Assembly (NCBI RefSeq): GCF_004324835.1
Contig: NW_021163190.1
Location: 191,242 to 255,241, forward strand
From: Dendronephthya gigantea
Lineage: Eukaryota
DNA length: 64,000 bases
Direction: 5' to 3'
Shown piece after piece: positions 5,638-55,983 of the stretch. The notes beneath the pieces were generated by a model. It saw only the letters and a list, made by a program, of their open reading frames with translations, ran no database searches and was not told the origin of the DNA. Both the position numbers and the translations under genes were made by a program. Position 1 is the first letter of the stretch. Each line of letters begins with the position of its first letter.

Positions 5638-6605
5638 TGACTTAGACAGAGTAAAATACTAAAGTAGGTCACATCTGGGTGCATTGCAAGCTAATGGGTT
5701 AACAAGAGACACTGACAAATAGTTTTGTTAACTCGTTAACTGACAGTATTCTTCCACTGATGAGTAAAATCATCTGACATTAGACAGAGTAAAATACTAA
5801 AGTAGGTCACATCTGGGTGCATTGCAAGCTAATGGGTTAACAAGAGACACTGACAGATAGTTTTGTTAACTTATTAACTGACAGTACTCTTCCACTGATG
5901 AGTAAAATCATCTGACATTAGACAGAGTAAAATACTAAAGTCGGTCACATCTGGGTGCATTGCAAGCTAATGGGTTAACAAGAGACACTGACAGATAGTT
6001 TTGTTAACTTATTAACTGACAGTATTCTTCCACTGATGAGTAAAATCATCTGACATTAGACAGAGTAAAATACTAAAGTAGGTCACATCTGGGTGAATTG
6101 CAAGCTAATGGGTTAACAAGAGACACTGACAGATAGTTTTGTTAACTTATTAACTGACAGAACTCTTCCACTGATGAGTAAAATCATCTGACATTAGACA
6201 TAGTAAAATTAAGTAGGTCACATCTGGGTGCATTGCAAGCTAATGGGTTAACAAGAGACACTGACAGATAGTTTTGTTAACTTGTTAACTGACAGTACTT
6301 TTCCACTGGTGAGTAAAATCGTCTGACATTAGACAGAGTAAAATACTAAAGTAGGTCACATCTGGGTGCATTGCAAGCTAATGGGTTAACAAGAGACACT
6401 AACAGATAGTTTTGTTAACTTATTAACTGACAGTACTCTTCCACTGATGAGTAAAATCATGTGACATTAGACAGAGTAAAATACTAAAGTAGGTCACATC
6501 TGGGTGCATTGCAAGCTAATGGGTTAACAAGAGACATTGACAGATAGTTTTGTTAACTTATTAACTGACAGTACTCTTCCACTGATGAGTAAAATCATCT
6601 GACAC
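5638..6605. repeat. 138-bp satellite, ~7 tandem units, in the divergent promoter region upstream of the gene at 6996
   Basis: Period measured: GACATTAGACAG recurs at 5776, 5914, 6052. Unit: gacattagacagagtaaaatactaaagtaggtcacatctgggtgcattgcaagctaatgggttaacaagagacactgacagatagttttgttaacttattaactgacagtactcttccactgatgagtaaaatcatct. Confidence 0.9.
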
Positions 6606-6995: not shown

Positions 6996-8618
6996 ATGGC
7001 TTCATATATACAAGGCTACGATAAAGAAAGGTTTGTCGACAAAATCAATCAAAATTTTCATTGCCAGATTTGCTTCAACGTCTTGAAAGAGCCGGTTATG
7101 TGTTCGAGAAACCAGCATTCTTTTTGCCGTTGTTGTATTACGAAACATCTGGAAAATTCTCAAACATGTCCAACGTGTGCTGATGAACTGACCGTAGAGA
7201 CTTTGATCGAACCACCGCGAATGGTTAAAGATTTTTTGAAAGAATCAAAAATTCGTTGCGTTTACATCGACAGAGGTTGTCAAGAAGTTGTAGAATTACA
7301 GCATCTTGACCGCCATGAAGATACATGTGGATATACACCAGCCGTTTGTACAAACCAAGGCTGTGGTTTAATTGTCAACAAGCGTGATCTTATTCACCAT
7401 GAAAGTGAAGTCTGTGAATTCCGAAAGTTGAAGTGTCACTCGTGCGGAGAAATAACGAAAACTTTGGCAGATATGGAGGAAAGAATGGCGAATATCGAGA
7501 AAAATAATGTAACAATTGAAACTAAAATAACAAATTTAGAGAAAAATATGGCGAGAAATACAACAGTCGCAGTCGCAGATTTAAAAGCAGATATGGAAGG
7601 AAAACACGAAGCGGTTAACAACGAAGTCAAAGGATTGAAAACAGCTTTGGTCAGAGCTTTTGATGAAATTAAGGACGTTCTTATCACGATGGAGGGCAAG
7701 ATAGAAGAAAACACAAGAAAAGTAAGAAATAGACCAAGTGGTGATAAGGAAAATATTATTGTTGCTGGAGGTTTTTTGACTAATTCTGTAGAGATGTTTA
7801 ACTGGCGTCAAAGAACATGGTCGCCATTACAATCAATGCCAAAGGATCGTTGGGGAGCGACTTCATTTATTTATAACAATCATATGACTATAGCTGGGGG
7901 TAGCTGTGCTGGGTCTGACATTGTTGATGACATGATTAGAATGAATATTGACCCAAACCCTGATCTCTCAACACAGTGGAGTGACTGTCCCGTTGAACTA
8001 CCTGATAAGTTGCAAAACCACAGCAGTGTGCTGTATAATGATCAGTTGATAGTCTCTGGAGGTGATTGCAAAAATGGTACATCTGACTTGATCGGATCAG
8101 CCCAGCTTGTTCCTCCCTATACTGTGAAGACCTTATCAAGAATGCCAGAACCAAGACAAGGTCACAGCATGGAAATATTTGATGATAATTTGGTGATAGT
8201 TGGTGGATTTTCAAATCGCCAATACAATGACATCCTCAGCAGTGGCATGCTGTACGGTATAAAGAAGAATGATCTGAAACAGTTATCACCACTGCCGTAT
8301 GAAGTGTGTGGTATGGCAACTGTGAGATGGGGAGACAACATTGTTGTTATTGGTGGCACTGATAATCATGGCAAGACATTAGATACAGTTATCATTTACA
8401 ATGTCAAGACAGGACAAAGTCACATGCTGCCATCAATGAGATGTAAGAGGAGGGGATGTACTGCAGTTGTTATTGAAAACAACATTGTAGTCCTGGGAGG
8501 GTGTGGTGAGGAAGGAGAGCTGAACTCAGTTGAAGGTTTCAACTTTGAAAGGTATTCTTGGGAAGAACTTCCAGAAATGTCTGAAGCAAGATGCTTGCAC
8601 AGTGCTGTTGTTGTGTGA
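6996..8618 (+). CDS. RING (C3HC4) - TRAF-type zinc finger - coiled coil - 6-blade Kelch propeller protein, 540 aa, intronless
   Basis: ORF track. RING: CQICFNVLKEPVMCSRNQHSFCRCCITKHLENSQTCPTC. zf-TRAF-like Cys/His spacing: CVYIDRGCQEVVELQHLDRHEDTCGYTPAVCTNQGCGLIVNKRDLIHHESEVCEFRKLKCHSCGE. Six GG-doublet blades: IIVAGG, MTIAGG, LIVSGG, LVIVGG, IVVIGG, IVVLGG. TGA stop followed by AATAAA-like signals. Confidence 0.85.
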   Translation: MASYIQGYDKERFVDKINQNFHCQICFNVLKEPVMCSRNQHSFCRCCITKHLENSQTCPTCADELTVETLIEPPRMVKDFLKESKIRCVYIDRGCQEVVELQHLDRHEDTCGYTPAVCTNQGCGLIVNKRDLIHHESEVCEFRKLKCHSCGEITKTLADMEERMANIEKNNVTIETKITNLEKNMARNTTVAVADLKADMEGKHEAVNNEVKGLKTALVRAFDEIKDVLITMEGKIEENTRKVRNRPSGDKENIIVAGGFLTNSVEMFNWRQRTWSPLQSMPKDRWGATSFIYNNHMTIAGGSCAGSDIVDDMIRMNIDPNPDLSTQWSDCPVELPDKLQNHSSVLYNDQLIVSGGDCKNGTSDLIGSAQLVPPYTVKTLSRMPEPRQGHSMEIFDDNLVIVGGFSNRQYNDILSSGMLYGIKKNDLKQLSPLPYEVCGMATVRWGDNIVVIGGTDNHGKTLDTVIIYNVKTGQSHMLPSMRCKRRGCTAVVIENNIVVLGGCGEEGELNSVEGFNFERYSWEELPEMSEARCLHSAVVV

Positions 8619-19308: not shown

Positions 19309-21849
19309 ACAATATGTAAGGTAATATTAAGTGAAAACTCCTAACATATTATGAACAATTGAAATGAACTATAAGATTTTCACAAAGTTATAGAAATAGT
19401 TTGTAGCATTCTAAGTTGATTGTAAGACATATACTGATTTGTATTTTTGTGATTGAATTTAAATTAAGTCAGTTCTTAGAACAATAATAAATGTTTGAAA
19501 TAGATATTTTCATTCTGGAAGGTCTAAAATGAAACACAAAATAAAAAATTTGAAATAAGCTTTTCTGCACCCACTCCATCTAGCTTTTTTCAGCCCCTCC
19601 CCTCCCACCTAGGTTTTTTAGCCACAACCCCACCCCTCCCCACCTAGGTTCTTCTGCCCTGGTCCCCCAGACCAAAAATCCTAACTGAGCCTCTGCCTCA
19701 AGAAATAGCTCAGTTACCTATTTTAAATATCAGCCTGTCTGTAAATAATGTCTGTGTCTGTCAGACTGCCACAAACCGAGTCATATTTTAAAATTTAACA
19801 ATTAACAAGATTTGGAGAGATAGTTTTACTCTTTATTAAAACAAAACCCTGATTAACTAATATAAATTGGTTTGTCAACTAAAATAAAATTCTTGTTTCA
19901 AGTTTGCTCACAGATTGTTTTGTAATTTCACGTTTTCCATCGCGTCCTTGAAGGCTTTTAGTACAAGATTTACATTATCTTTTGTACTGTTCAACCCCAT
20001 CAGACCAACACGCCATATCTGAAAATTTTCAGGACAAAAAGTATGCTTTTAAGAGGGAAAAAAAAATTTCCGATTATGGAGGGAATAACTGCGAATATGA
20101 AGAAGAAATTGTGAATATGGATACCTTTCCAGCAGATCTTCCAAGACCACCTGAAATATCCATTTTATATCTGAAAAAGAAATTGATTATTCAATTTTAA
20201 CACTCTCCCTCTTTATTGGACCTCTATGGATCACCCCCCTGCAAGTCTTAAAAATGCAGCTGTTAGCAGCGGGGGGACTCTTTCCCAAGATTCATCACTC
20301 AGCAAGTACCGTTAATGGAAGGAACTACCCCCTGACCATATTAAAAATGGAGCACTTGCTGAATGAGGGAATCACTTATGCAAAAAACTATGGAGTTGTT
20401 CTTCTGATAGGTATTCTGTGCCTACACTTTCTTTTATTTTTATTGTATTTTTATCTTTACTTGAGAGAACGACATGAAATTACCATTTAGACCTAACCCG
20501 GGGGGTGAAGGAAGTACAATCATCAAATTCATTACTAATGGTAGTATATATACAATTAAATTGACTTTTGCAAAATACAATGACATTTTCGTGCAAATAA
20601 AACCAAATACGGTAGAAATAACTACAAAACCATGCTCCATTTTACCAATACAACAACTATTATTACAAATAGTCTTTTGGGTTTACGATTAAACCATTCT
20701 TATAAAATTGTAAATGCAAATGCTGTGTTATTCCTGAGTAAGGAATTTCCTACGATTTTCCTAACACTGAACCTTCATCAGCGAAGCCTGAAGACTTCGA
20801 AGGCGTGAAATAAAATATCTTTGCACTAAAACCTATAAAAAATGAATGAAGTTAATTACTCTAGTGCAATACACGGGTCTACGAGGTTGTTCTCAAGTCA
20901 TGCAACGATGAACCTTCCATATTTCATTTTAATATTTATGGCTTTATTGTTGAAGATAATGAAAGCGAAAGAGAGAAATTGTTTACAAGTGAAATAGTCA
21001 GATTGTCTTTTAAATTGCCGTGGAAAACTGATTTTGTTTCGAGAAATACATTATAGTTTAAAATTTACTTTAGCCGAATTCATATTAGAGGCGGGAAACT
21101 CGTCTTACAAGGTCAAGAAAAACAGGAAACTCGTTTCACAGGGGAAACTCCTCTTGGAAACTCATCTCAGACGGGAAACTCGTCTGATGTGAATCAGGCC
21201 ACAGACGGGTTTCTCGTCAGAATTTTCCCGCCTAATTTTCCCGTGTAAACAAACGGTTAATTTGAACGGGAATCCCTTCTGGACGACAAACTCGTCTTAA
21301 ATTCGCATTTAGACGGATAAATCAGACGAGTTTCTGAAATATCAACACGGTCAAGGACGGAACAAGGGTAAAGCCCGCCGCACAAGAGAGCTATCAGCTG
21401 AGCTAACGACCTCGCAACGCAGTTAACTCAGCCTGAAAACTATCCGCACACGATAGAAACTTGCCTCTCGAGGCGAATTCCACACGAAAAACTATCCGCA
21501 CACGAGAGTAACTTGCTGAGCTAACAGCCTAGCGAGGTCTTTACCTCAGCTACCAGTTCTCGTGTGAGGCGCGCTTAACTGAGAAAATAAACAAAATTAT
21601 TATCGTAATAATCACGATACCCTTTTTAGCATTACCCGACCCATCACACGTGTAAATTTTACATCCATTCCAAGTCATATTAAGACGGGTTTTTACAATC
21701 AACTTTCCTTTCTAAGATGAATTTCCCGTGCCTAATATGAATTTGGTTGTTAATGTGAGAGAGATGATACCTTCGGCTTCTCCGCTTCCTTGAATATACA
21801 ATCCATTGTTATATGGTTTGTTGTTGTTTGAATAAGAACGTGATTTTCG

Positions 21850-24207: not shown

Positions 24208-24769
24208 ACAATATGTAAGGTATTAAGTGAAAACTCCTAACATATTATGAACAATTGAAATGAACTATAAGATTTTCACAAAGTTATAGAAATAGATTGT
24301 AGGATTCTAAGTTGATTGTCAGACATATACTGATTTGTATTTTTGTAACTGAATTTAAATTGAGTCAGTTCTTGGAGTTATATATTAAAGAACAATGACA
24401 AATGTATGAAATAGATATTTCCATTCAGGAAGGTTTAAAATGAAACATCAAATAAAAGAATTCAAACAATAGGTAGGTGCATGAGTAAAAAAAATTTGAT
24501 TAAATATTGACCATGTTGGATCAGAGTTATTAGTTTCTATTAACTGCGGTTTGGATTTAAAAAATTCAACTTTCCTAGAAGCATAAATATTTCTGGGAGG
24601 AGACATAAAATGAAAGGGTAAACTTACGATGTTTCAGAGCATGTGATGCAGGGAATATTTCTGATGTTAGATTTCAACATTGATAATGGCGTTTGTTCAT
24701 CTCTACCATGATGTTCTCCACATTTGAAATAAAATTCCTTTGAAAGAACAAAAAGTTTGTGATCGACCT

Positions 24770-25190
24770 ACTTTAGTATTTTAATCTGTCTAATGTCAGA
24801 TGATTTTACTCATCAGTGGAAGAGTACTGTCAGTTAATAAGTTAACAAAACATTCTGTCAGTGTCTCTTGTTAACCCATTAGCTTGCAATGCACCCAGAT
24901 GTGACCTACTTTAGTATTTTACTCTGCCTAATGCCAGATGATTTTACTCATCAGTGGAAGAGTACTGTCAGTTAATAAGTTAACAAAACTATCTGTCAGT
25001 GTCTCTTGTTAACCCATTAGCTTGCAATGCACCCAGATGTGACCTACTTTAGTATTTTACTCTGTCTAATGTCAGATGATTTTACTCATCAGTGGAAGAG
25101 TACTGTCAGTTAATAAGTTAGCAAAACTATCTGTCAGTGTCTCTTGTTAACCCATTAGATTGCAATGCCCCCAGATGTGGCCCACTATTG
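24770..25190. repeat. Same 138-bp satellite, ~3 units, inverted orientation
   Basis: Reverse-complement monomers (tactttagtattttactctgtctaatgtcagatgattttactcatcagtggaagag...). Confidence 0.85.
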
Positions 25191-25619
25191 TATTTTAGGT
25201 CTGATAGGTCTTACAGCTGTTTTTCCATGACAGTTTGTATTGGATTCACATTGTCCCTGCAAGCGGCCTTTGATCAATACATCATCCCAACCATTTGGAC
25301 CCTTGCAAGAAACCATAAATATTGTGTAAACAAGATATTTGTTGACATTCAAAAGCTTTCACAGCAAGCTTGTAAACAAGTTGAAACAATGTCAACATTT
25401 AATTTACAAAGTTGTACATAAATCTGCTGTGGTTTTTTACAAGTTGTTTATAAGCAAAGAGTAAATACCTGTGATAGAACAAAGCTTCCTTCCTTGCAAT
25501 TTGAACATCGACATCGCAATTTTCCTCGTGTTAGTTTCTTGCAAGTTTTACAATAAACAAAGAAGAAACTTTGCTTGCCTGAGATGAGAGAGGATGAAAA
25601 GTTTGGATTATTAAAGAAG

Positions 25620-25960
25620 CCCTGGTGTAGAGAGATGAGCTTATTAGAAAGAGATTATTAATATTAAAGAGAAAGGGGCTTATTAGAGAGAGAGGCCTAT
25701 TAGAGAGAGAGGGGCTTATTAGAGAGAGAGGCCTATTAGAGAGAGAGGGGCTTATTAGAGAGAGAGGCCTATTAGAGAGAGAGGGACTTATTAGAGAGAG
25801 AGGGGCTTATTTGAGAGAGAGGCCTATTAGAGAGAAATGGGCTTATTTGAGAGAGAGGCCTATTAGAGAGAGAGGGGCTTATTAGAGAGAGAGGGGCTTA
25901 TTTGAGAGAGGGAGGGGCTATTAGAGAGAGAGGGGCTTTTTAGAGAGAGAGAGGGTGGGG
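25620..25960. repeat. ~17-bp minisatellite (CTTATTAGAGAGAGAGGGG), ~18 units, then ~600 bp of degenerate purine-rich ~70-bp repeats (to 26560); a diverged copy of the purine-rich block lies at 35470-36120
   Basis: Read directly; sits inside the intron of the minus-strand UBL gene. Confidence 0.85.
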
Positions 25961-26652
25961 CTTTATGGATAAAGTATAATAAGATTAGGGGGAAAGGCAG
26001 GGTAGAGAACCCCCTACCCAGGTTTCTCCATGAGGAAAATGCAAGGGTATTCAGGTAAGGGGGTATGGGCAAGGGTGGGGTGAGTTAATTGGAAAAAGAG
26101 TTTTTAGAGAGGAGGCATATTAGAAAGGGGCATGCTAGTAGGGAAGGGTATAGGGGATTGGCTATAGAGGGTTAATTAGAGAGGGATATAAGAGTTCTAA
26201 GAGGTACATTAGGGAGGGGCATACTATTAGGGAAGGGAATAGAGAATGATTTGAGGGTTAATTAGAGAGGAATATTAGAGAAGAGGTACATTAGGGAAGG
26301 GCATTGTGACAGAGAGGAATAGAAGTGATTTGAGGGTTAATTAGAGATGGCTGTTGAGAAGGATATTTTATAGAGGACAAACTAGAGAAAGGGTTATTAC
26401 AAAAGACGTGTATTAGACAGGAATACAATACAAGGAACAGACATGAAAAAGATGTTATTATAGTGGATTAACTAGAGAGAGGTTTATCAGGAAAGAGGTT
26501 TATTAAATCAGGTCATATCAGAAAGGGAGAGGAACGAGGGTGAACATAGTGGGAACATATTGGAGGTATTTATTGAGGGTGTAAAATTAGGAAGGGGATT
26601 AAACAGGGTGGGGTCACACCATTGAGAGGTTTATGAAAGATCTCGTCACCAC

Positions 26653-28519: not shown

Positions 28520-30157
28520 ATGGCTTCATATATACAAGGTTACGATGAAGAAAGGTTTGTGGACAAAATAAATCAAAATTTTCATTGTCAGATTTGCTTC
28601 AACGTCTTGAAAGAGCCGGTTATGTGTTCGAGAAACCAGCATTCTTTTTGCCGTTGTTGTATTACGAAACATCTGGAAAATTCTCAAACATGCCCAACGT
28701 GTGCTGATAAACTGACCGTAGAGACTTTGGCCGAACCTTCACGAATGGTAAAAGATTTTTTAAATGAATCAAAAATTCGTTGCGTTTACATCGACAGAGG
28801 TTGTCAAGAAGTTGTAGAAGTGCAGCATCTTGACCGCCATGAAGATACATGTGGATATACACCAGCCGTTTGTACAAACCAAGGCTGTGGTTTAATTGTC
28901 AACAAGCGTGATCTTATTCACCATGAAAGTGAAGTCTGTGAATTCCGAAAGTTGAAGTGTCACTCCTGCGGAGAAATAACGAAAACCTTGGCAGATATGG
29001 ACGAAAGAATGGCGAATATGGAAAAGAACATAGGGAAGGAATAGTATAACAATTGAAACTAAAATAACAAATTTAGAGCGAAATGTTGCACGGAATATCG
29101 AGAAAAACACGGCAGATATAAAAAGCAGATATGGAAGGAAAACACGAAGCGGTTAACAACAAAGTCGATGGATTGAAAACAGCTTTGGTCAGAGCTTTTG
29201 ATGAATGAAGGACGTTTTTATCACGATGGAGGGCAAGAAAGAAGAAAAACAAGAAAAGTAGGAAATAGACCAAGTGGTGATAAGGAAAATATAATTGTTG
29301 CTGGTGGAGGTTTTTTGAATGAGTCTGTAGAGATGTTTAACTGGCGTCAAAGAACATGGTCGCCATTACAATCAATGCCAAAGGATCGTTGGGGAGCGAC
29401 TTCATTTATTTATAACAATGATATGACTATAGCTGGGGGTTTCTGTGGTTTGTCTGGCATTGTTGATGATATGATTAGAATGAATATTGACCCAAACCCT
29501 GATCTCTCAACACACTGGAGTGACTGTCCTGTTAAACTACCTGATAAGTTGAAATACCACAGCAGTGTGCTGTATAATGATCAGTTGATAGTCTCTGGAG
29601 GTGATAATGAAAATGTTTCATCTGACCTGATCAGAGCAGTCCAGCTTGTTCCTCCCTATACTGTGAAGACCTTATCAAGAATGCCAGAACCAAGGCATGG
29701 TCACAGCATGGAATTATTTGATGATAATTTGTTGATAGTTGGTGGAACTACAACTGGCTATACCAAAGACAACCTTAGCAGTGTCACGCTGTATGATATT
29801 AAGAAGAATGAGTTGAAACAGTTGTCACCACTGCCGTATGAAGTGAGTCACATGGCAACTGTGAGATGGGGAGACAACATTGTTGTTATTGGTGGTGATG
29901 ACAAACATGGCAAGACATTAGATACAGTTATCATTTACAATGTCAAAACAGAACAAAGTCACATGCTGCCATCAATGAGATGTAAGAGGTGGGGATGTAC
30001 TGCAGTTGTTATTGAAAACAACATTGTAGTCCTGGGAGGATCTGGTGAGCAAGGAAAGATGAAGTCAGTTGAAGGTTTCAACTTTGAAAGGTATTCTTGG
30101 GAAGAACTTCCAGAAATGTCTGAAGCAAGATACTGGCACACTGCTGTTGTTGTGTGA
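28520..30157 (+). pseudogene. RING-zfTRAF-CC-Kelch paralog disabled by several indels in the coiled-coil region (~29030-29230); Kelch half still reads as an ORF
   Basis: ORF splits into 28370..29044 and 29198..30157. Versus other copies: atagggaaggaatagtataacaattg instead of ..aataatgtaacaattg, and tgatgaatgaaggacgttttta missing bases. The RING/TRAF part and the Kelch part are in different frames. Confidence 0.7.
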
Positions 30158-32841: not shown

Positions 32842-34467
32842 ATGGCTTCATATATACAAGGCTACGACGAAGAAAGGTTTGTGGACAAAATCAATCAAAA
32901 TTTTCATTGCCAGATTTGCTTCAACGTCTTGAAAGAGCCGGTTATGTGTTCGAGAAACCAGCATTCTTTTTGCCGTTGTTGTATTACGAAACATCTGGAA
33001 AATTCTCAAACATGCCCAACGTGTGCTGATGAACTGACCGTAGAGACTTTGATCGAACCACCGCGAATGGTTAAAGATTTTTTGAATGAATCAAAAATTC
33101 GTTGCGTTTACATCGACAGAGGTTGTCAAGAAGTTGTAGAATTACAGCATCTTGACCGCCATGAAGATACATGTGGATATACACCAGCCGTTTGTACAAA
33201 CCAAGGCTGTGGTTTAATTGTCAACAAGCGTGATCTTATTCGCCATGAAAGTGAAGTCTGTGAATTCCGAAAGTTGAAGTGTCACTCGTGCGGAGAAATA
33301 ACGAAAACTTTGGCAGATATGGAGGAAAGAATGGCGAATATCGAGAAGAATAATGTAACAATTGAAACTAAAATAACAAATTTGGAGAAAAACGTTGCCA
33401 CTGTTGCAAATATCGAGAAAAACACGGCAGACTTAAAAGCGAATATGGAAGGAAAACACGAAGCGGTTAACAACGAAGTCAAAGGATTGAAAACAGCTTT
33501 GGTCAGAGCTTTTGATGAAATAAAGGACGTTCTTATCACGATGGAGGGCAAGAAAGAAGAAAACACAAGAAAAGTAATAAATAGACCAAGTGGTGATAAG
33601 GAAAATATAATTGTTGCTGGAGGTTATTTGACTAACTCTGTAGAGATGTTTAACTGGCGTCAAAGAACATGGTTGCCATTACAATCAATGCCAGAGAAAC
33701 GTTATGGAGCGACTTCATTTATTTACAACAATCATATGACTATAGCTGGGGGTTGCTGTTTTCCTAACATTGTTGATGATATGATTAGAATGAATATTGA
33801 CCCAAACCCTGATCTCTCAACACACTGGAGTGACTGTCCTGATAAACTACCTGATAAGTCGAGATTCTACAGCAGTGTGCTGTATAATGATCAGTTGATA
33901 GTCTCTGGAGGTGAAGAGAGAAACGATTCATCTGACTTGATCAGAGCAGTCCAGCTTGTTCCTCCCTATACTGTGAAGACCTTATCAAGAATGCCAGAAC
34001 CAAGACAATGTCACAGCATGGAAATATTTGATGATAATTTGTTGATAGTTGGTGGAAGAACAACTCACAGACACACAGACAACCTCAGCAGTGTCGTACT
34101 GTACGATATAAAGAAGAATGAGCTGAAACAGTTGTCACCACTACCGTATGAAGTGAGTCTCATGGCAACTGTGAGATGGGGAGACAACATTGTTGTTATT
34201 GGTGGCATTGACAAACATGCCAAGACATTAGATACAGTTATCATTTACAATGTCAAGACAGAACAAAGTCACATGCTGCCATCAATGAGACGGAAAAGGA
34301 GGGGATGTACTGCAGTTGTTATTGAAAACAACATTGTAGTCCTTGGAGGGTTTGGTGAGCGACGAGAGCTGAAGTTAGTTGAAGGTTTCAACTTTGAAAG
34401 GTATTCTTGGGAAGAGCTTCCAGAAATGTCTGAAGCAAGATACTGGCACACTGCTGTTGTTGTGTGA
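32842..34467 (+). CDS. RING-zfTRAF-CC-Kelch paralog, 541 aa
   Basis: ORF track; same architecture; loops IAGGCCFPNIVDD, SGGEERNDSSD, LGGFGERRELKLVEG. Confidence 0.85.
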   Translation: MASYIQGYDEERFVDKINQNFHCQICFNVLKEPVMCSRNQHSFCRCCITKHLENSQTCPTCADELTVETLIEPPRMVKDFLNESKIRCVYIDRGCQEVVELQHLDRHEDTCGYTPAVCTNQGCGLIVNKRDLIRHESEVCEFRKLKCHSCGEITKTLADMEERMANIEKNNVTIETKITNLEKNVATVANIEKNTADLKANMEGKHEAVNNEVKGLKTALVRAFDEIKDVLITMEGKKEENTRKVINRPSGDKENIIVAGGYLTNSVEMFNWRQRTWLPLQSMPEKRYGATSFIYNNHMTIAGGCCFPNIVDDMIRMNIDPNPDLSTHWSDCPDKLPDKSRFYSSVLYNDQLIVSGGEERNDSSDLIRAVQLVPPYTVKTLSRMPEPRQCHSMEIFDDNLLIVGGRTTHRHTDNLSSVVLYDIKKNELKQLSPLPYEVSLMATVRWGDNIVVIGGIDKHAKTLDTVIIYNVKTEQSHMLPSMRRKRRGCTAVVIENNIVVLGGFGERRELKLVEGFNFERYSWEELPEMSEARYWHTAVVV

Positions 34468-34924: not shown

Positions 34925-35225
34925 GTGATCAACCTACTTTAGTATTTTACCCTGTCTAATGTCAGATGATTTTACTCATCAGTGGAAGAGTACTGTCAGT
35001 TAACAAGTTAACAAAACTATCTGTCAGTGTCTCTTGTTAACCCACTAGCTTGCAATGCACCCAGATGTGACCTACTTTAGTATTTTACTCTGTCTAATTT
35101 CAGGTGATTTTACTCATCAGTGGAAGAGTACTGTCAGTTAATAAGTTAACAAAACTATTTGTCAGTATCTCTTGTTAACCCATTAGCTTGCAATGCACCT
35201 AGATGTGACCCACTATTGTATTTTA
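34925..35225. repeat. Same 138-bp satellite, ~2 units, inverted orientation (paralogous to 24770-25190)
   Basis: Sequence identity to 24770-25190. Confidence 0.85.
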
Positions 35226-40245: not shown

Positions 40246-40397
40246 ATGGCTTCATATATACAAGGCTACGATGAAGAAAGGTTTGTGAACCAAATCGATC
40301 GAAATTTTCATTGTCAGATTTGCTTCAACGTCTTGAAAGAGCCGGTTATGTGTTCGAGAAACCAGCATTCTTTTTGCCGTTGTTGTATTACGAAACA
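40246..40397 (+). pseudogene. 5' fragment (Met1..CCITKH) of a RING-zfTRAF-CC-Kelch copy, cut off by a transposon insertion
   Basis: MASYIQGYDEERFVNQIDRNFHCQICFNVLKEPVMCSRNQHSFCRCCITKH, then non-homologous GAATAC-rich sequence. The gene resumes at 43943. Confidence 0.8.
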
Positions 40398-43300
40398 CTG
40401 CATGAAAAACCGCGTATTCACAGGTGAATACGTGCGAATATGAGTTCGAATATGGTCCATATTCACACGTATTCACAGATATTCACTGTGAATATCCTCG
40501 GAATATTGGGGGTATTCCGATGTGAATACCTGTGAATAAAACACACCGCGTATTCTGACCTAGAATACCTTCGAATACTCTGTGAATATTTTTCAAGACC
40601 TAGTATTCACACTTCGGCATAGAAAATGTGATTGTACGCATGAATACTGGATAATCAACGAGTTATATTGTGTAAATATTGCAGGAAATGCGTTTATATA
40701 CCACGGAATAGGCAATTAAAGGTTGTTTCAGTTCAATGCCGGTGTCAACTGTTATCCAGCATTTCTTCTCATCACGGTCACAAATTGAAATTGCACTTGA
40801 TTTGTTTAGGCGACAGACAATAAATGTTACCAAACGCACGATGATTTTTATTTGATTAATTTTTTTGCTGCCGCAGGGATGTCGAGTATCGTATATCCTC
40901 AGTCGATGAGCGCTGAGTAGCCTCGTAAGTCGTAAAAAAGCTGTATAAAAAGAGAAATATCCATCAATTTCTTTTATTACCTGTGTAAAAGAAGTTATAT
41001 ATAAAAAAAATACTTTTATTTTTGCTTGGATACGTAAACACATGGGTAGAAAGTTGATGATTCTGTATCGTCAAAAGCATCCGTAATATAAACAGTTCAG
41101 TGTTGGGAAATCGTAGGAAATTTCCTTTGGGAAATTTCCTCTTCGACATGTTAGTGACAATTTTTGCGCCAAGGAATTGCGGCGAAATTGCGAATAAATG
41201 GCGAAATTCGGAGGTCGTATAACAATAACAAATAAATGTCTTTAAATGATTCCTCGCAAAAGTTGTCCAGTTCCCTTTGTTTACAAAACGATAACATGGC
41301 ACAAATGTCAATTGGTTTCAACCAGGGCGCTTATATATAAATGCGTGGTTTCAACAGAAGTTCAAGCTGTTCAACTTTGAATTGTTAAAGATGTTCGCGA
41401 TGCCCCAAAATAATTCTTGTGGCGGCGCTAAAATCAGGTAAGTTATTTAATAATAACAAGAGTTATGTCATACTATAGTCCTGAAACAACACAACACAAC
41501 AACAATAGTGCGAGGCCAACGCTTTTACGGCTGGGCTCATCACTTTTTTTGTTTTTATTAATATAAATAGATTACGATTGTGTTTATTGTAGCTAATTTG
41601 TACACAGCTAACTGTACCTGCTTGTAGATAAATAAATTGTATGATGGTTTTCATCAATCCTACCTCCATCACACACTAATTATAGTAGGTACAAATGTTT
41701 GCCATTTCAAAGCCATACTCAATACAAACAAAATTTAAAAGTTTGCCAATACTGAAAAGGGACATTACTTTCTTACCTACCACAAATATTCAGAAAGCTG
41801 CTGTAATCATAACTTTAACATAACATAACCCTTAGATAGACGTTTCAAGATGCATTGAAATGAGGTGCATTGGTACATTTCATGAGGGTTTTTTATATTT
41901 TAGGCAAAATTTATATATTATAGATATATATTGTTATATAATTGTCACAGAATAGCTAATGATTGATTGCCAAAAGATTGAAATCTTAACAATCAGCTGC
42001 CCAAAGACAGAAATCTTAACAGCTTAGAAATCAAAGCCAGACTGTGTTTTTTAGTTATATATAATACATATTTTTTAACAAAATAATGGCCTATATTTTT
42101 CCTTTTAGCATATATGAATTATATTTAAACTAATATTTACCACAGAATAGCTATTGAACTGGTTGCCAAAAGATAGGAATCTTAACAACCAGCTGCCCAA
42201 AGACAGAAATCTTAACAGCTTAGAAGTTCATGCTAGACTGTGTTTTTAAGTGAAGCCTTTTAACATTGCCCTCATCATAATTTATAACTGAGACTGTTTA
42301 CTGATTTGTACATATACATTCTCCTAGGAATATTATAATTTCATTACACTGCATAAAATCTATGCACAACAATAAAAACAAATGGCCATGCATGCAACAT
42401 CAGCTTTTACCATTATCATTAACCTTTCGGATAATAATCTATTATAGCTTAAGAAAGTTTGCTATGTATTTTGTTCAATAATTGCTTTAAGGTGGTTTTA
42501 ATTGTTTTTAGCCATCAGGGGTTGCAAGATTGAGAAAATTCCCAAAAGAGTTGGCCTTAACTTTGCTAAAGATGAAGAGGATTTTTCACCCAGTGAAAGA
42601 AGTTCCTGATTCATTATCTGCTCACCTATAGTTTTTAATATCTTACCAAGTGAAAAAACATCACTTGCTTTGCTCAACAATTTACTATTAAGTATAATTT
42701 CTGACATACTCCAGGAGCAATGTGTTTCATATAATACTAAAACAACATTGCTTATAAATTAAACAATCAGCTGATGAAAGATTGAAAATCATAACAGCTT
42801 AGTAGAAGTTCATGATAGGCTGTGTTTTTGCTACATATTTTGAACAATTTGTGATGTTCCAATAATATTTTTATAAAATGTGAAATGTTGTAACCCATCA
42901 CATGTACATGTGATCTGTTAAGGACTGTATAAAATTTAAATAATTGACTGAAATCTTAGTATTGCATTTGATCAACCTTGATAAAACACATTAACTGTGG
43001 ATAAACCTACCATTGCAATGTGTATGACTGCTATGCAAATTAACATGGCAACCTAAAGATTATGCATGTTGTTCATATTGATATTTTCCTTAATGGACAG
43101 ACTTGAGGGACAATAAATGCCTAAACATTCGCACAGGCTGCGAACGCATAACCCATTAACCTCTTATCACCAGGTAATTTGTTAATAAAATGTTGAGATT
43201 ACTCCCAACATGGTCATCGGGTATAGTCTATAGACCGGCTATTGAATTCAACTGCACGATATTTAGTCACTCACCGAAGAGGTCCCTTACGCACAAACAG

Positions 43301-43942
43301 TATATGCGTTTTCGGTTTTGAACAATAAAAAATCCTTGAAATACGGTTAATATTCGTTATCATTTTACACGTATTAGCGAACATAAGGTGCTGTAGCAAT
43401 CGCGCCATGCAATCTCATTTCTATTTCGCGCATTTTCTTCATCAGACTTCGTGGGAATCGTAGCATACAAATACTCGCCGGCATGCTCTTTAACTGCGAC
43501 CAGAGTTTCCAGACTTTACCAAGCCCTTGGCATCCTTCACTCTCTTCCCTTATTTGTAAGCGCCAAAAAGATTTCTTACAGCCACAAACGCACGATCTCC
43601 TCGTTCAATGTTTATTAAACTCGAAAGCGCGCTTTTTGGTTTTTGCGCCAAATTATTTATAAAATTCCACTTCAATTTTTCAGCATTCAAAATAAAGTTT
43701 AAAAATGTCAGCTGATGAATTTATTTTGTGGAAACACGGATTAAGTGAGAAGTGAGATATTCCAAGTGTGAATATTGGTCAGAATACGCGGCATATTCAC
43801 GGCGTATTCACACTTAGAATACTGAAGAATACGATGCCGTATTCACACTAATATTCCATGTCGGAATACGCTTGCAATATGTGTTTTATTCACACCCGTA
43901 TTCACATGTGAATACCTTGGAATACGGCGCTTTTCATGCAGT
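40398..43942. mobile_element. ~3.5-kb non-autonomous TIR DNA transposon inserted in the RING-coding part of a Kelch gene copy; TSD GAAACA (6 bp, possibly a degenerate 8 bp)
   Basis: Termini CTGCATGAAAAACCGCGTATTC ... GGCGCTTTTCATGCAGT are inverted. Dense subterminal GAATAC/GTATTC repeats at both ends. Host sequence GAAACA present on both sides (40392-40397 and 43943-43948). Internal ~85-bp repeats near 41940 and 42130. No transposase-like ORF. Confidence 0.75.
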
Positions 43943-45422
43943 GAAACATCTGGAAAATTCTCAAACATGCCCAACGTGTGCTGATGAACTGACCGTAGAG
44001 ACTTTGGCCGAAGCACCGCGAATGGTAAAAGATTTCCTGAATGAATCAAAAATTCGTTGCGTTTACATCGACAAAGGTTGTCAAGAAGTTGTAGAATTAC
44101 AGCATCTTGACCGCCATGAAGATACATGTGGATATACACCAACCGTTTGTACAAACCAAGGCTGTGGTTTAATTGTCAACAAGCGTGATCTTATTCACCA
44201 TGAAAGTGAAGTCTGTGAATTCCGAAAGTTGAAGTGTCACTCGTGCGGAGAAATAACGAAAACTTTGGCAGATATGGAGGAAAGAATGGCGAATATCGAG
44301 AAGAATATCGAGAAGAATAATACAACAGTTGAAATTAAAATAAGAAATTTAGACAGAAAAATAGACAAAAACACGGCAGATATAAAAGCAGATATGGAAG
44401 GAAAACACGAAGCGGTTAACAACGAAGTCAGAGGATTGAAAACAGCTTTGGTCAGAGCTTTTGATGAAATGAAGGACGTTCTTATCACGATGGAGGCCAA
44501 GAAAAAAGAAAACATAGCAAAGGTAATAAATAGACCAAGTGGTGATAAGGAAAATATAATTGTTGCTGGAGGTATAGGAATTAACTCTGTAGAGATGTTT
44601 AACTGGCGTCAAAGAACATGGTCGCCATTACAATCAATGCCAGAGGGTCGTTATGCAGCGACTTCATTTATTTATAACAATCATATGACTATAGCTGGGG
44701 GTAGCTGTCGTGGTTTTTCTGGCATTGTTGATGATATGATTAGAATGAATATTGACCCAAACCCTGATCTCTCAACACACTGGAGTGACTGTCCTGTTAA
44801 ACTACCTGATAAGTTGAATAACCACAGGAGTGTGCTGTATAATGATCAGTTGATAGTCTCTGGAGGTGATAATGAAAATGGTTCATCTGACTTGATCAGT
44901 TCAGTCCAGCTTGTTCCTCCCTATACTGTGAAGACCTTATCAAGAATGCCAGAACCAAGAAAATATTACAGCATGGAAATATTTGATGATAATTTGTTGA
45001 TACTTGGTGGAAGAACAACTGGCAGTGCCAAAGACAGCCTCAGCAGTGTCGTACTGTACGATATAAAGAAGAATGAGCTGAAACAGTTGTCACCACTACC
45101 GTATGAAGTGAGTCACATGGCAACTGTGAGATGGGGAGACAACATCGTTGTTATTGGTGGTGCTGACAAACATGGCAAGTTAATAAATACAGTTATCATG
45201 TACAATTTCAAGACAGAACAAAGTCACATGCTGCCATTAATGATATGTAAGAGAAGTGCATGTACCGCAGTTGTTATTGAAAACAACATTGTAGTCCTGG
45301 GAGGGTGTGGTGAGCAAGGAGAGCTGAAGTCAGTTCAAGGTTTCAACTTTGAAAGGTATTCTTGGGAAGAACTTCCAGAAATGTCTAAAGCAAGATACTG
45401 GCACACTGCTGTTGTTGTGTGA
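43943..45422 (+). pseudogene. 3' portion (LENSQTCPTC...TAVVV*) of the same transposon-disrupted RING-zfTRAF-CC-Kelch copy
   Basis: ORF 43872..45422 becomes homologous to the family exactly at HLENSQ after the duplicated GAAACA. The remainder is a complete zfTRAF-CC-Kelch reading frame. Confidence 0.8.
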
Positions 45423-50570: not shown

Positions 50571-52211
50571 ATGGCTTCATATATACAAGGCTACGATGAA
50601 GAAAGGTTTGTGAACAAAATCGATCGAAATTTTCATTGCCAGATTTGCTTCAACGTTTTGAAAGAGCCGGTTATGTGTTCGAGAAACCAGCATTCTTTTT
50701 GCCGTTGTTGTATTACGAAACATCTGGAAAATTCTCAAACATGCCCAACGGTGCTGATGACTGACCGTAGAGACTTTGACCGAACCTTCACGATGGTAAA
50801 AGATTTTTTAAATGAATCGAAAATTCGTTGCGTTTACATCGACAGAGGTTGTCAAGAAGTTGTAGAATTACAGCATCTTGACCGTCATGAAGATACATGT
50901 GGATATACACCAGCCGTTTGTACAAACCAAGGCTGTGGTTTAATTGTCAACAAGCGTGATCTTATTCACCATGAAAGTGAAGTCTGTGAATTCCGAAAGT
51001 TGAAGTGTCACTCGTGCGGAGAAATAACGAAAACTTTGGCAGAAATGCAGGAAAGAATGGCGAATATCGAGAAGAATATGGTAACAAATAAAACAGTTGA
51101 AACTAAAATAACAAATTTAGAGAAAAATGTTGCCACTGTTGCGAATAATATGGAGAAAAACACGGCAGATATAAAAGCAGATATGGAAGGAAAACACGAA
51201 GCGGTTAACAACGAAGTCAAAGGATTGAAAACAGCTTTGGTCAGAGCTTTTGATGAAATGAAGGACGTTCTTATCACCATGGAGGGCAAAAAAGAAGAAA
51301 ACACAAGAAAACTAATAAATAGACCAAGTGGTGATAAGGAAAATATAATTGTTGCTGGAGGTGGTTGGTCTAACTCTGTGGAGATGTTTAACTGGCGTCA
51401 AAGAACATGGTCGCCATTACAATCAATGCCAAAGGATCGTTCTGGAGCGACTTCATTTATCTATAACAATCATGTGACTATAGCTGGGGGTTGCTGTGAT
51501 GTTTGGTCTGGGATTCTTGATGATATGATTAGAATGAATATTGACCCAAACCCTGATCTCTCAACACACTGGAGTGACTGTCCTGTTAAACTACCTGATA
51601 AGTTGAGATACCACAGCAGTGTGCTGTATAATGATCAGTTGATAGTCTCTGGAGGTGATAATGGAAATGGTTTATCTGACTTGATCAGTTCAGTCCAGCT
51701 TGTTCCTCCCTATACTGTGAAGACCTTATCAAGAATGCCAGAACCAAGACAAGGTCACACCATGGAAATATTTGATGATAATTTGTTGATAGTTGGTGGA
51801 ACTGCAACTGGCGGATGCAAAGACAACCTCAGCAGTGTCGTACTGTTCAATATAAAGAAGAATGAGCTGAAACAGTTGTCACCACTGCCGTATGAAGTGA
51901 GTGATATGGCAACTGTGAGATGGGGAGACAACATTGTTGTTATTGGTGGCGCTGACAAACATGCCAAGCCATTAGATACAGTTATCATTTACAATGTCAA
52001 GACAGAACAAAGTCACATGCTGCCATCAATGAGATGTAAGAGGAGGGGATGTACTGCAGTTGTTATTGAAAACAACATTGTAGTCCCGGGAGGGGATGGT
52101 GAGCGACGAGAGCTGAAGTCAGTTGAAGGTTTCAACTTTGAAAGGTATTCTTGGGAAGAACTTCCAGAAATGTCTGAGGCAAGATGGCTGCACACTGCTG
52201 TTGTTGTGTGA
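50571..52211 (+). CDS. RING-zfTRAF-CC-Kelch paralog, 546 aa; three separate 1-bp deletions (net -3) destroy the end of the RING (CPTCADELTVETLAEPSRM becomes CPTVLMTDRRDFDRTFTM)
   Basis: Alignment against copy at 28680-28750: ccaacgtgtgctgatgaactgacc vs ccaacggtgctgatgactgacc, and cacgaatggtaaaag vs cacgatggtaaaag. The rest of the ORF is intact. Confidence 0.7.
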   Translation: MASYIQGYDEERFVNKIDRNFHCQICFNVLKEPVMCSRNQHSFCRCCITKHLENSQTCPTVLMTDRRDFDRTFTMVKDFLNESKIRCVYIDRGCQEVVELQHLDRHEDTCGYTPAVCTNQGCGLIVNKRDLIHHESEVCEFRKLKCHSCGEITKTLAEMQERMANIEKNMVTNKTVETKITNLEKNVATVANNMEKNTADIKADMEGKHEAVNNEVKGLKTALVRAFDEMKDVLITMEGKKEENTRKLINRPSGDKENIIVAGGGWSNSVEMFNWRQRTWSPLQSMPKDRSGATSFIYNNHVTIAGGCCDVWSGILDDMIRMNIDPNPDLSTHWSDCPVKLPDKLRYHSSVLYNDQLIVSGGDNGNGLSDLISSVQLVPPYTVKTLSRMPEPRQGHTMEIFDDNLLIVGGTATGGCKDNLSSVVLFNIKKNELKQLSPLPYEVSDMATVRWGDNIVVIGGADKHAKPLDTVIIYNVKTEQSHMLPSMRCKRRGCTAVVIENNIVVPGGDGERRELKSVEGFNFERYSWEELPEMSEARWLHTAVVV

Positions 52212-53099: not shown

Positions 53100-53520
53100 T
53101 TATTGGACCTGTAGGAATAACCTTTATTGTTGACCTCTAGAAAGAACAATTTAGAGCTATCCAGTATAAATAAAGTTGGTTTAGTTTAGGTTTCCTCCTG
53201 TAGTAACACTGGATCATTAAGAGATGATCCTTACTGAACCTCTAGGAAGAACAGTTTAGAACTGATAGAACTATCCAGTAAAAATAAAATTAGTTTAGTT
53301 TAGGTTTCCTACTGTAGTAACACTGGATCAATAAAAGATGATCCTTACTGAACCTCTAGGAAGAACAGTTTAGAACTGATAGAACTATCCAGTAAAAATA
53401 AAATTAGTTTAGTTTAGGTTTCCTACTGTAGTAACACTGGATCAATAAAAGATGATCCTTACTGGATCTCTAGGAAGAACAGTTTAAAACTGATAGAGCT
53501 ATCCAGTATTAAGAAAGTTA
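53100..53520. repeat. ~115-bp tandem repeat, ~3.5 units
   Basis: cctctaggaagaacagtttagaactgatagaactatccagtaaaaataaaattagtttagtttaggtttcctactgtagtaacactggatcaataaaagatgatccttactgaa repeated. Confidence 0.85.
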
Positions 53521-53535
53521 GTTTAGTAAACATAC

Positions 53536-53618
53536 TTTTCGCCAATGAATGCTGAAACTTTCTTCCAGTCGACTCCTTGTGGAATAACAACTCCAGTGAT
53601 GGTAGATAAGCGATGGCG
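53536..53618 (-). CDS. AGXT: AGXT-like exon 8 (RHRLSTITGVVIPQGVDWKKVSAFIGE..); terminal exon(s) not located in this window
   Basis: Matches [27 protein letters not shown]. Acceptor ctcatag|, donor AA|gtatgt. No downstream coding exon found through the 115-bp repeat block. Confidence 0.55.
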
Positions 53619-53698
53619 CTATGAGAGAAAATGGAAGATTAATCCTTTAAACTACGATTAACATTTCTGCATGGACATCACTAAAATATTTCTCAAAC

Positions 53699-53794
53699 CT
53701 TGTCTTGAACAAATAAGGTGAATCCCATTTTCTCGAAACCTTCGCGTAAAAGTTCAGCACATTTCTGATGTCTTGCAATAAAGTTTTCAAGACC
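53699..53794 (-). CDS. AGXT: AGXT-like exon 7 (GLENFIARHQKCAELLREGFEKMGFTLFVQDK)
   Basis: Matches [31 protein letters not shown]. Acceptor atttag|, donor AAG|gtttga. Confidence 0.65.
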
Positions 53795-53800
53795 CTAAAT

Positions 53801-54590
53801 ATGAGAGTTGACAAGCGAGAGTTTACATGAGAGTTTCATCAACTATCATTGCTTCATCAAACGAGAACAAGAGTTACATGAGAGTTGACAAGCGAGAGTT
53901 TACATGAGAGTTTCATCAACTATCATTGCTTGATCAAACGAGAACAAGAGTTGCATGAGAGTTGACAAGCGAGAGTTTACATGAGAGTTTCATCAACTAT
54001 CATTGCTTGATCAAACGAGAACAAGAGTTACATGAGAGTTGACAAGCGAGAGTTTACATGAAAGTTTCATCAACTATCATTCCTTGATCAAACGAGAACA
54101 AGAGTTACATGAGAGTTGACAAGCGAGAGTTTACATGAGAGTTTCATCAACTATCATTGCTTGATCAAACGAAAACAAGAGTTGCATGAGAGTTGACAAG
54201 CGAGAGTTTACATGAGAGTTTCATCAACTATCATTGCTTGATCAAACGAGAACAAGAGTTGCATGAGAGTTGACAAGCGAGAGTTTACATGAGAGTTTCA
54301 TCAACTATCATTGCTTGATCAAACGAAACAAGAGTTGCATGAGAGTTGACAAGCGAGAGTTTACATGAGAGTTTCATCAACTATCATTGCTTGATCAAAC
54401 GAGAACAAGAGTTGCATGAGAGTTGACAAGCGAGAGTTTATATGAGAGTTTCATCAACTATCATTGCTTGATCAAACGAGAACAAGAGTTGCATGAGAGT
54501 TGACAAGCGAGAGTTTATATGAGAGTTTCATCAACTATCATTGCTTGATCAAACGAGAACAAGAGTTGCATGAGAGTTGACAAGCGAGAG
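53801..54590. repeat. 77-bp tandem repeat, ~10 units (in AGXT-like intron 6)
   Basis: atgagagttgacaagcgagag recurs at 53801 and 53878; unit gagagttgacaagcgagagtttacatgagagtttcatcaactatcattgcttgatcaaacgagaacaagagttgcat. Confidence 0.9.
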
Positions 54591-54629
54591 TTAATATATA
54601 ATCCAGTCAAAAACGTTGTTTAAACAAAC

Positions 54630-54699
54630 CTCCTCAACCACAAGTGAAAGAGCTTCTCGTAAAGCATATACCGAATTTGTTGGTCCAGTATGATGGTAT
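54630..54699 (-). CDS. AGXT: AGXT-like exon 6 (YHHTGPTNSVYALREALSLVVEE)
   Basis: Matches [25 protein letters not shown]. Acceptor ccttag|, donor GAG|gtttgt. Confidence 0.65.
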
Positions 54700-55261
54700 C
54701 TAAGGATTATATTGAAACAGGCAATATTAGTCATATTACTGTTGAATTTATAATGGTTGCACTGAGTGAATTTGTGATTTCACACCAAAATTGCACGACA
54801 CAAAGTGCAATTTCCACTTTATTATATTCATTTTGAAATCATACAAAAGATTAAACAAATTCAAAACGATTTATTGGCTGAAAGAACCGTAAACGCGGTG
54901 TAAAATGTGAGCAATTTTCATTTATTTTTGTGAAGAAATTTTGCGGGGCATTTAAAATTCAAAATAATAAAATTTTGTTCCATATTTTCCCGTGTAATTT
55001 GATTGGATGGTTACACTGAAATACTAAATCTGATTGGTTATTGTGGTGCAGAGCTTCAATCTTATTGGCTTATAAATGATGTGATTAATGCTCAAAAATA
55101 GTGCGATTTGGGAATTAATCACAGTATTTTTAACCAATCAGATTGCAAGAAACACCATTGATTTCAAAATGAATATAATAAAGTGTAGTATGTTACTGGT
55201 GTTCATAATTATCATGTCTGGAAAATCAATAACAGCAACATATGAAGATGGTTTGTCTCAC

Positions 55262-55339
55262 CTGCGTGGCCCATCATCACAACCCCAGTAATTTGCAATC
55301 ATTGTGAGATCAAAGTAGAATGAGGGTACTTTAGTTTTC
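55262..55339 (-). CDS. AGXT: AGXT-like exon 5 ([26 protein letters not shown])
   Basis: Matches [25 protein letters not shown]. Acceptor atccag|, donor CAG|gtgaga. Confidence 0.7.
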
Positions 55340-55920: not shown

Positions 55921-55983
55921 CACTTGACCACTATGACCATTGAGACATGGTTTTTCAGGACAAATTAGTTCAACCAATACTTA

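Follow-up and report, generated by a model that had tools for sequence, protein, structure and literature searches.

Introduction

The genes described here, a tandem cluster of RING–Kelch paralogues in a 64-kb stretch of the genome of the octocoral Dendronephthya gigantea (assembly GCF_004324835.1, contig NW_021163190.1, positions 191,242 to 255,241; hereafter the window, numbered from its first nucleotide), have their closest described counterparts among the ubiquitin-ligase families of other organisms. The finTRIM report (PMC2657112) describes near-identical N-terminal parts, large lineage-specific clusters and positive selection in the variable loops of the recognition domain. Like finTRIM and TRIM5alpha, the proteins of the window combine an N-terminal RING E3 module, a predicted coiled coil and a C-terminal recognition domain in a single chain, and they belong to a clustered multigene family with a conserved effector part, arrays of which also occur at three further loci (L002 to L004). 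Unlike finTRIM and TRIM5alpha, they have no detected B-box, carry predicted TRAF/Sina-type zinc fingers after the RING, use Kelch in place of B30.2/SPRY and are cnidarian.

Other families resemble the window proteins in single modules. The six-blade Kelch propeller is shared with KLHL proteins and Keap1, which are Cullin-3 adaptors, and the hypervariable residues described below fall at the positions by which Keap1 binds Nrf2. In contrast to these adaptors, the RING is in the same chain here and BTB and BACK domains are lacking; docking to Cullin-3 is accordingly not expected. Whereas KLHL proteins occur as conserved single-copy orthologues, the present family is tandem and hypervariable. The RING and zinc-finger N-terminus aligns with that of TRAF6 and precedes a long helix comparable to the TRAF coiled coil; TRAF6 differs in its defining MATH/TRAF-C domain, which Kelch replaces here, and the zf-TRAF and Sina_ZnF scores of the window proteins lie under the curated cut-offs. 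For nematodes and plants, Thomas (Genome Research, 2006) reportedly described expanded families of F-box and MATH-BTB adapters. These resemble the present family in the lineage-specific tandem expansion of ubiquitin-ligase specificity subunits by birth and death, with a conserved ligase-docking part and a positively selected substrate-binding domain. They differ in being cullin-ligase adapters with FTH, FBA or MATH domains (in plants Kelch or leucine-rich repeats), whereas here RING and receptor are fused and the Kelch domain is metazoan. The diversity of the F-box family in C. elegans is treated in PMC8120010.

Full-text literature searches, which cannot prove such a family undescribed, returned neither an octocoral RING-TRAF-Kelch expansion nor a metazoan Kelch domain used as a hypervariable module. 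The principle is already known from TRIM5/finTRIM, from nematode and plant F-box proteins and from MATH-BTB proteins; the architecture, the use of Kelch as the hypervariable module and the octocoral expansion did not turn up in these searches and may be new. We report that diversifying selection probably acts on the recognition face of this expanded, clustered family of predicted TRAF-type RING–Kelch E3 ligases, which evolves by birth and death and has its scaffold homogenised by gene conversion.

The window proteins join a TRAF6-like RING and zinc-finger module to a Kelch propeller

The window (37% G+C) contains nine intronless paralogues on the + strand, c1 to c9, spaced at 4.3-11 kb within 52 kb. 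Five are intact open reading frames (ORFs) of 534-547 residues and four are disrupted. Copy c2, an intact ORF of 540 residues, served as the reference; its segment 7860-8618, which runs from blade 2 of the propeller to the stop codon, is the one to which the initial annotation had been attached. The parts of c2 are as follows.

6996 to 7475, + strand: RING and predicted TRAF/Sina-type zinc fingers (Pfam; TRAF6 match)
7476 to 7733, + strand: long helix or coiled coil, and linker (AlphaFold 2 model)
7734 to 8615, + strand: six-blade Kelch propeller (Pfam; AlphaFold 2 model)

Kelch domains were recognised as tandem repeats of 44-56 residues in which four hydrophobic residues precede a GG doublet, together with a match to a Kelch profile hidden Markov model. 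All copies carry six such hydrophobic-GG motifs. Pfam matches above threshold were Kelch_1 (93.5 bits, cut-off 20.1, four stretches), Kelch_KLHDC2_KLHL20_DRC7 (117 bits, cut-off 50) and zf-C3HC4_2. The AlphaFold 2 model of the c2 Kelch domain (predicted local distance difference test score 90.1, predicted template modelling score 0.88) has about 24 strands in six blades, with a C-terminal strand closing blade 1. Foldseek superimposed it on the Kelch domains of KLHL12 (2vpj) and Keap1 (1zgk) with template modelling scores of 0.86-0.90 and root-mean-square deviations of 1.8-1.9 Å.

At the N-terminus, c2 residues 5-151 align with the RING and zinc-finger region of TRAF6 (phmmer, E=1.8e-10); zf-TRAF (21.3 bits, cut-off 27) and Sina_ZnF (24.8 bits, cut-off 32) are both below threshold in c2. 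In the full-length model the RING and zinc fingers reach to about residue 128, a single long helix occupies residues 129-233 and the propeller residues 253-540. When the monomer is modelled the helix has low confidence, which is to be expected of a coiled coil. Pfam searches at E<=0.1 returned neither BTB or BACK, which define the N-terminus of KLHL proteins, nor zf-B_box, which marks TRIM proteins. The MATH/TRAF-C domain that defines the C-terminus of TRAFs had no Pfam match either, the C-terminus being Kelch. These absences, together with the TRAF6-like N-terminus and the Kelch domain, therefore point to a putative TRAF-type RING/zinc-finger/coiled-coil ligase in which Kelch replaces MATH or B30.2. 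The protein lacks both a signal peptide and any hydrophobic segment (the highest Kyte-Doolittle mean over 19 residues is 1.06), and its targets are therefore expected to be intracellular.

Copies also differ in the coiled-coil segment (c2 7476-7600 and its counterparts) by in-frame insertions and deletions of short NxEKN- or VATVAN-like units, which account for the range of gene lengths from 534 to 547 residues. The length of the helix may vary among the paralogues as well.

Variability is concentrated in the BC and DA loops of the propeller

The Kelch domains of the nine copies were aligned by codon (296 columns). Overall, the proportions of differing non-synonymous and synonymous sites were nearly equal (pN 0.084 versus pS 0.081), and the changes were very unevenly distributed. 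The 48 codons at positions GG+1 to GG+8 make up 16% of the columns and hold 54% of the minimum non-synonymous changes, a share reached by 0 of 295 circular shifts of these windows. The two residues before the first strand of each blade (12 codons, 4%) add another 14%. Together these two sets, the BC loops (eight residues after GG) and the DA loops (two residues before strand A), comprise 20% of the Kelch codons and 68% of the amino-acid changes. When loop classes were assigned a priori from the DSSP secondary-structure string of the AlphaFold 2 model, 42 of the 48 columns with at least three different residues lay in BC or DA loops (Fisher P=3e-12). On the opposite face, variable columns numbered 0 of 10 in the AB loops and 4 of 33 in the CD loops. 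Mean pairwise amino-acid identity was 33% at the 48 variable columns versus 94% at the other 248.

The loops of c2 are listed with the residues of human Keap1 to which their variable positions align.

7767 to 7787, + strand: blade 1 BC loop (GG-FLTNS), hypervariable; F at GG+1 (Keap1 Y334)
7830 to 7859, + strand: DA loop between blades 1 and 2 (QSMPKDRWGA); variable W (Keap1 S363)
7896 to 7931, + strand: blade 2 BC loop (GG-SCAGSDIVDD), hypervariable; S and A (Keap1 R380 and N382)
7986 to 8021, + strand: DA loop between blades 2 and 3 (..DKLQNH); variable pair preceding HSS
8058 to 8078, + strand: blade 3 BC loop (GG-DCKNG), hypervariable
8139 to 8165, + strand: DA loop between blades 3 and 4 (RMPEPRQGH); variable pair following PR
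8202 to 8243, + strand: blade 4 BC loop (GG-FSNRQYNDILSS), the most variable loop
8286 to 8315, + strand: DA loop between blades 4 and 5 (..YEVCGM); variable pair
8352 to 8387, + strand: blade 5 BC loop (GG-TDNHGKTLDT); T and K (Keap1 Y525 and Q530)
8430 to 8459, + strand: DA loop between blades 5 and 6 (..CKRRGC); variable R (Keap1 S555)
8496 to 8528, + strand: blade 6 BC loop (GG-CGEEGELNS); C and E (Keap1 Y572 and F577)
8571 to 8600, + strand: DA loop before the C-terminal closing strand (..SEARCLHS); variable pair (Keap1 S602 and the next residue)

Across the copies, the six DA loops read KDR[W/Y/F/C/S]G, KL[xx]H, PR[Q/H/K][C/G/Y]H, EV[S/C/N][D/G/H/L]M, KR[G/R/W/S]G and AR[xx]H. The blade 2 BC loop also differs in length, by in-frame indels of -3 to +1 codons among the copies. 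Hypervariable sites are enriched in Tyr (4.8-fold), Trp (3.3-fold), Arg (2.2-fold) and Phe (2.0-fold), and Pro, Met, Ile, Val, Ser and Gly are under-represented there; this is the composition of protein-binding hot spots, unlike that of unconstrained loops.

The initial annotation had proposed that variation among the paralogues concentrates in short loops after the GG doublets, and every series of loop motifs that it quoted is present in the translations. The concentration is real and not exclusive to those loops, since all six DA loops vary too; the variable aromatic pair that it had described before TAVVV is confirmed and turns out to be only the last of the six. Its statement that loops are replaced wholesale, often with indels, holds in so far as in-frame indels exist, and these are confined to the loops of blades 1 and 2. 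GGST, which it had treated as a constant prefix of one motif series, is itself variable. The near-identity of the copies even at synonymous sites amounts to a pS of about 0.05 for the scaffold and 0.08 for the Kelch domain as a whole.

The variable loops correspond to the substrate-binding face of Keap1

The c2 propeller was aligned to human Keap1, the sequence of which was checked and is 100% identical to PDB entry 4xmb_A. Contacts of Keap1 with the Nrf2 ETGE peptide we take to be Y334, S363, R380, N382, R415, R483, S508, Y525, Q530, S555, Y572, F577 and S602, a numbering that fits the verified 4xmb_A sequence. All 13 of these positions map to BC or DA loops of c2. Ten of the 13 fall on hypervariable sites defined from other species, and the remaining three adjoin such sites. 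The alignment columns contain on average 4.5 different residues at the 13 contact positions versus 1.6 elsewhere (Mann-Whitney P=1e-10). This alignment of the hypervariable positions with the Keap1 residues that hold the Nrf2 peptide places the variable residues, DA loops included, on the predicted substrate-binding face. The alignment, with the model-based superposition on KLHL12 and Keap1, thus bears out the proposal of the initial annotation that the loops after GG form the ligand-binding face, and the scarcity of variable columns in the AB and CD loops suggests that variation is not scattered over both faces.

Amino-acid change exceeds silent change at independently defined sites

Omega, the ratio of non-synonymous to synonymous change per site, was obtained from the nine recombining sequences by a counting approach, with Nei-Gojobori sites and a minimum spanning tree for each codon. 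To avoid circularity, hypervariable sites were defined independently of the window as the columns without a majority residue in 120 database homologues of other species. This yielded 22 sites, of which 21 lie in BC or DA loops. The window paralogues have undergone a minimum of 74 non-synonymous and 4 synonymous changes at these sites, corresponding to an omega of about 3.5 (binomial P=0.003 against omega=1; bootstrap 95% interval 1.6-25), versus 0.76 at the remaining 274 codons and 0.48 in the part outside the top face. The contingency of non-synonymous and synonymous changes between loops and rest was highly significant (P=2e-5). The silent rate per silent site was similar in hypervariable codons (0.38) and elsewhere (0.30); only substitutions that alter the amino acid are therefore in excess, which argues against a local mutational hotspot. 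By domain, pN/pS among the five intact copies was 0.36 in the RING and zinc fingers, 0.56 in the helix and 1.19 in the Kelch domain.

The analysis was replicated in three tandem arrays of two other assemblies (L002 in ERZ25067548; L003 and L004 in ERZ25073802), three complete Kelch ORFs of each being used, with the hypervariable sites taken from the window only. Pooled omega was 1.69 (P=0.012) at the hypervariable sites versus 0.39 elsewhere. Omega above 1 concentrated on the ligand-binding surface, a hallmark of diversifying germline-encoded receptor families of E3 type, is thus observed in the window and again in independent arrays, in agreement with the diversifying selection that the initial annotation had suggested.

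Copies are homogenised as transcribed units and are mosaics of one another

The copies are 92-98% identical over a stretch that reaches from some 200 bp before the ATG to some 250 bp beyond the stop codon. The next kilobase downstream is 62-84% identical, and DNA further upstream cannot be aligned. The scaffold pS of about 0.05 is far below the divergence of the flanks, an indication that the transcribed unit has evolved in concert after older tandem duplications. AATAAA/ATTAAA signals lie at +177 and +244 after the stop codon in nearly all copies (8795 and 8863 in c2). The first 200 nucleotides of the 3' flank are about 97% identical, exceeding the coding sequence, and the high identity stops just past these signals.

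The four-gamete test was failed by 57% of informative site pairs, with at least 22 exchange events (Rm) in 885 bp. The nearest paralogue switches from blade to blade: c3 pairs with c8 in blade 1, c4 with c7 in blade 2, c4 with c5 in blade 4, c4 with c6 in blade 5, and c6 or c2 with c8 in blade 6. The copies are therefore mosaics, and conversion also reshuffles combinations of loops. Retroposition was considered as the main mode of duplication, the genes being intronless with homology that ends near the poly(A) signals; it was rejected on the grounds that about 1 kb downstream is alignable at 62-84% identity and that the promoter-proximal 200 bp are shared.

State of the gene copies and their surroundings

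The nine copies and one further fragment are, in order along the window:

1 to 1028, + strand: c1, truncated by the window start; coiled coil and Kelch, with an in-frame TAA at 219-221 in blade 1
6996 to 8618, + strand: c2, the gene to which the initial annotation refers; intact, 540 residues
11586 to 11723, + strand: relic fragment between c2 and c3, matching the last 45 residues (496-540) at 67% identity
13211 to 14815, + strand: c3, intact, 534 residues
17665 to 19308, + strand: c4, intact, 547 residues
22585 to 24207, + strand: c5, intact, 540 residues
28520 to 30157, + strand: c6, coiled-coil segment broken by several frameshifts and stop codons (about 29038-29249); Kelch ORF intact
32842 to 34467, + strand: c7, intact, 541 residues
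40246 to 45422, + strand: c8, codons 1-51 at 40246-40398 and the remainder at 43944-45422, the RING being split by an inserted element
50571 to 52211, + strand: c9, ORF open, with 1-nt deletions at 50751, 50760 and 50793

Copies c1 and c6 are probably pseudogenes. In c9, the three deletions shift the frame of 14 codons and remove the last RING cysteine. The relic fragment is evidence of an older, decayed copy. No further recognisable gene was found in the window, and nine intergenic ORFs gave zero Pfam matches.

The insertion in codon 51 of c8 is a 3.5-kb element (40396-43943) with imperfect terminal inverted repeats of 68 nt (40396-40463 and 43876-43943), ends CACTGCATGAAAA, a 3-bp duplication (AAA) and subterminal GTGAATAC repeats. 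It is a non-autonomous DNA transposon that resembles the CACTA/CMC type, and Pfam detected no transposase ORF in it. Short arrays of a 138-nt satellite lie between the cluster genes in both orientations (5638-6604 and 56185-57574, + strand; 24765-25197 and 34932-35225, - strand), one such array being immediately upstream of c2. Additional tandem arrays at 53152-55931 and 25662-26347 have units of 114 nt, 77 nt (10 copies, 98% matches) and 80 nt. Where the GC skew is strongly positive, at 24-28 kb and 34-36 kb, AG-rich arrays of 19- and 36-nt units are responsible.

Related genes form clusters in other assemblies

A protein database search with c2 gave 1571 matches at E<=1e-10, with a best identity of 76%. 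More than 120 of them reach an identity of 62% or higher and occur as clusters on numerous contigs, many with several genes per contig. All named matches come from the octocoral Paramuricea clavata and carry automatic names such as 'RING finger 151-like' and 'NRDP1'. NRDP1 (RNF41) carries a C-terminal USP8-binding domain. The C-terminus here being Kelch, the RNF151 and NRDP1 names of the Paramuricea homologues probably reflect similarity of the RING and zinc fingers only. In a library clustered at 50% identity, 272 clusters matched at E<=1e-30, with at least 15 full-length representatives at 34-45% identity.

The related arrays in other assemblies are seen to follow the same birth-and-death dynamics. 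At locus L001 (1197-2779), fragmented RING-only and Kelch-only ORFs lie beside an intact gene, and at L004 a reverse-transcriptase ORF (RVT_1; 19645-21605, - strand) adjoins the cluster. Kelch matches were also found in giant proteins of 3,700-6,500 residues (P0178, P0201, P0219, P0259 and P0261), in 12-21 separate stretches at 25-28% identity; these are poly-Kelch proteins.

Discussion

We propose that the TRAF6-like RING and zinc fingers would recruit an E2 and transfer ubiquitin, that the helix of about 100 residues is presumably an oligomerising coiled coil like those of TRAFs and TRIMs, and that the C-terminal Kelch propeller would serve as the target-recognition module in place of MATH or B30.2. 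The proteins would then be active, oligomerising E3 ligases that ubiquitinate any ligand of the Kelch face. The transcribed unit is probably held at 92-98% identity by gene conversion or unequal crossing-over, with positive selection acting on some 20-45 BC and DA residues at the positions where Keap1 and KLHL proteins grip substrate peptides. Each paralogue thereby presents a different binding surface rich in Tyr, Trp and Arg, and exchange of segments reshuffles the combinations of loops.

Several observations weigh against diversifying selection on the recognition face. The omega estimates come from counting methods applied to only nine recombining sequences, and the mere 4 silent changes counted at the 22 sites leave omega very poorly bounded from above. 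Broad loop classes reach an omega of only 1.2-1.6 (P=0.03). Surface exposure was deduced from secondary structure and the Keap1 alignment, not measured on coordinates. At invariant codons inside the loops, pairwise silent diversity is about twice that of the scaffold (0.108 versus 0.047), and some of the divergence among loops may be ancient, having been missed by conversion, and not a product of recent adaptation. The higher silent diversity of the loops would also fit selection against homogenisation of loop tracts, although this is suggestive only. Finally, with four of the nine copies disrupted, some relaxed constraint is present.

The diversified surface would be expected to track fast-evolving intracellular ligands. 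By analogy with TRIM5alpha and finTRIM, these would most likely be proteins of viruses or of other intracellular parasites or symbionts. It is from such analogy only that we infer an immune role, which the initial annotation had expressed as 'as in immune receptor families'. The same selection might instead serve a non-immune function directed at rapidly evolving endogenous or genomic-conflict partners, for example transposon proteins, determinants of allorecognition and colony fusion, or the management of symbionts. Intracellular targets, as indicated by the lack of a signal peptide or hydrophobic segment, are in line with such a function, as is the embedding of the cluster in transposon- and satellite-rich DNA, and nematode F-box adapters include members with non-immune conflict roles (PMC11573670). 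We nevertheless regard it as rather unlikely. The closest evolutionary analogues with known ligands, TRIM5alpha and finTRIM (PMC2657112), are antiviral; nothing in the present data separates such a function from recognition of pathogens.

Neutral relaxation, in which unconstrained BC and DA loops drift at an omega of about 1, purifying selection and conversion keep the scaffold, and the family is partly decaying, would draw on the disrupted copies, on the low omega of the broad loop classes and on a scaffold omega of about 0.5, which is itself fairly relaxed. It is improbable in view of the omega of about 3.5 at the independent sites, significantly above 1, and of the contrast that replicates in other arrays. 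The enrichment of Tyr, Trp, Arg and Phe and depletion of Gly, Ser and Pro at hypervariable sites is the reverse of what unconstrained loops would show, all loop indels are in frame, and the same positions are hypervariable across 120 intact homologues.

A mutational mechanism, whether hypermutation targeted locally or micro-conversion templated by other family members and inserting short divergent tracts in the loops, would fit the multi-nucleotide replacements and indels restricted to short tracts, the loop motifs shared as mosaics among non-adjacent copies and the twofold silent diversity at invariant loop codons, but it is very improbable, since a hotspot should raise both rates whereas silent change is near-equal and non-synonymous change is about 4.5 times silent change in hypervariable codons, and conversion moves variants but leaves the non-synonymous excess unexplained. 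Targeted mutagenesis of the bacterial or diversity-generating retroelement type is not applicable: the locus is eukaryotic, and silent changes in the loops are not clearly elevated.

Diversifying selection on the recognition face therefore remains our preferred explanation. Cnidarian innate immunity is known mainly from expanded TLR- and NLR-type receptors. Tentatively, octocorals may possess, in addition, a large germline repertoire of cytosolic TRAF-type RING–Kelch ligases for intracellular immune recognition, a possible Kelch-based counterpart, in an early-branching animal, of the TRIM5/finTRIM restriction factors in which hundreds of paralogues would each have their own Tyr/Trp/Arg-rich Kelch 'paratope', shaped by selection and by inter-blade shuffling through conversion. 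Near-identical scaffolds with differing loops constitute a natural library for the specificity of Kelch loops, of relevance to the engineering of Keap1/KLHL-type binders and degraders. If our reading is true, the Kelch propeller, usually viewed as a conserved adaptor, can act as a hypervariable scaffold, and hundreds of RING–Kelch ligases with antibody-like variability on the substrate-binding face would give corals a new class of candidate molecules for intracellular recognition.

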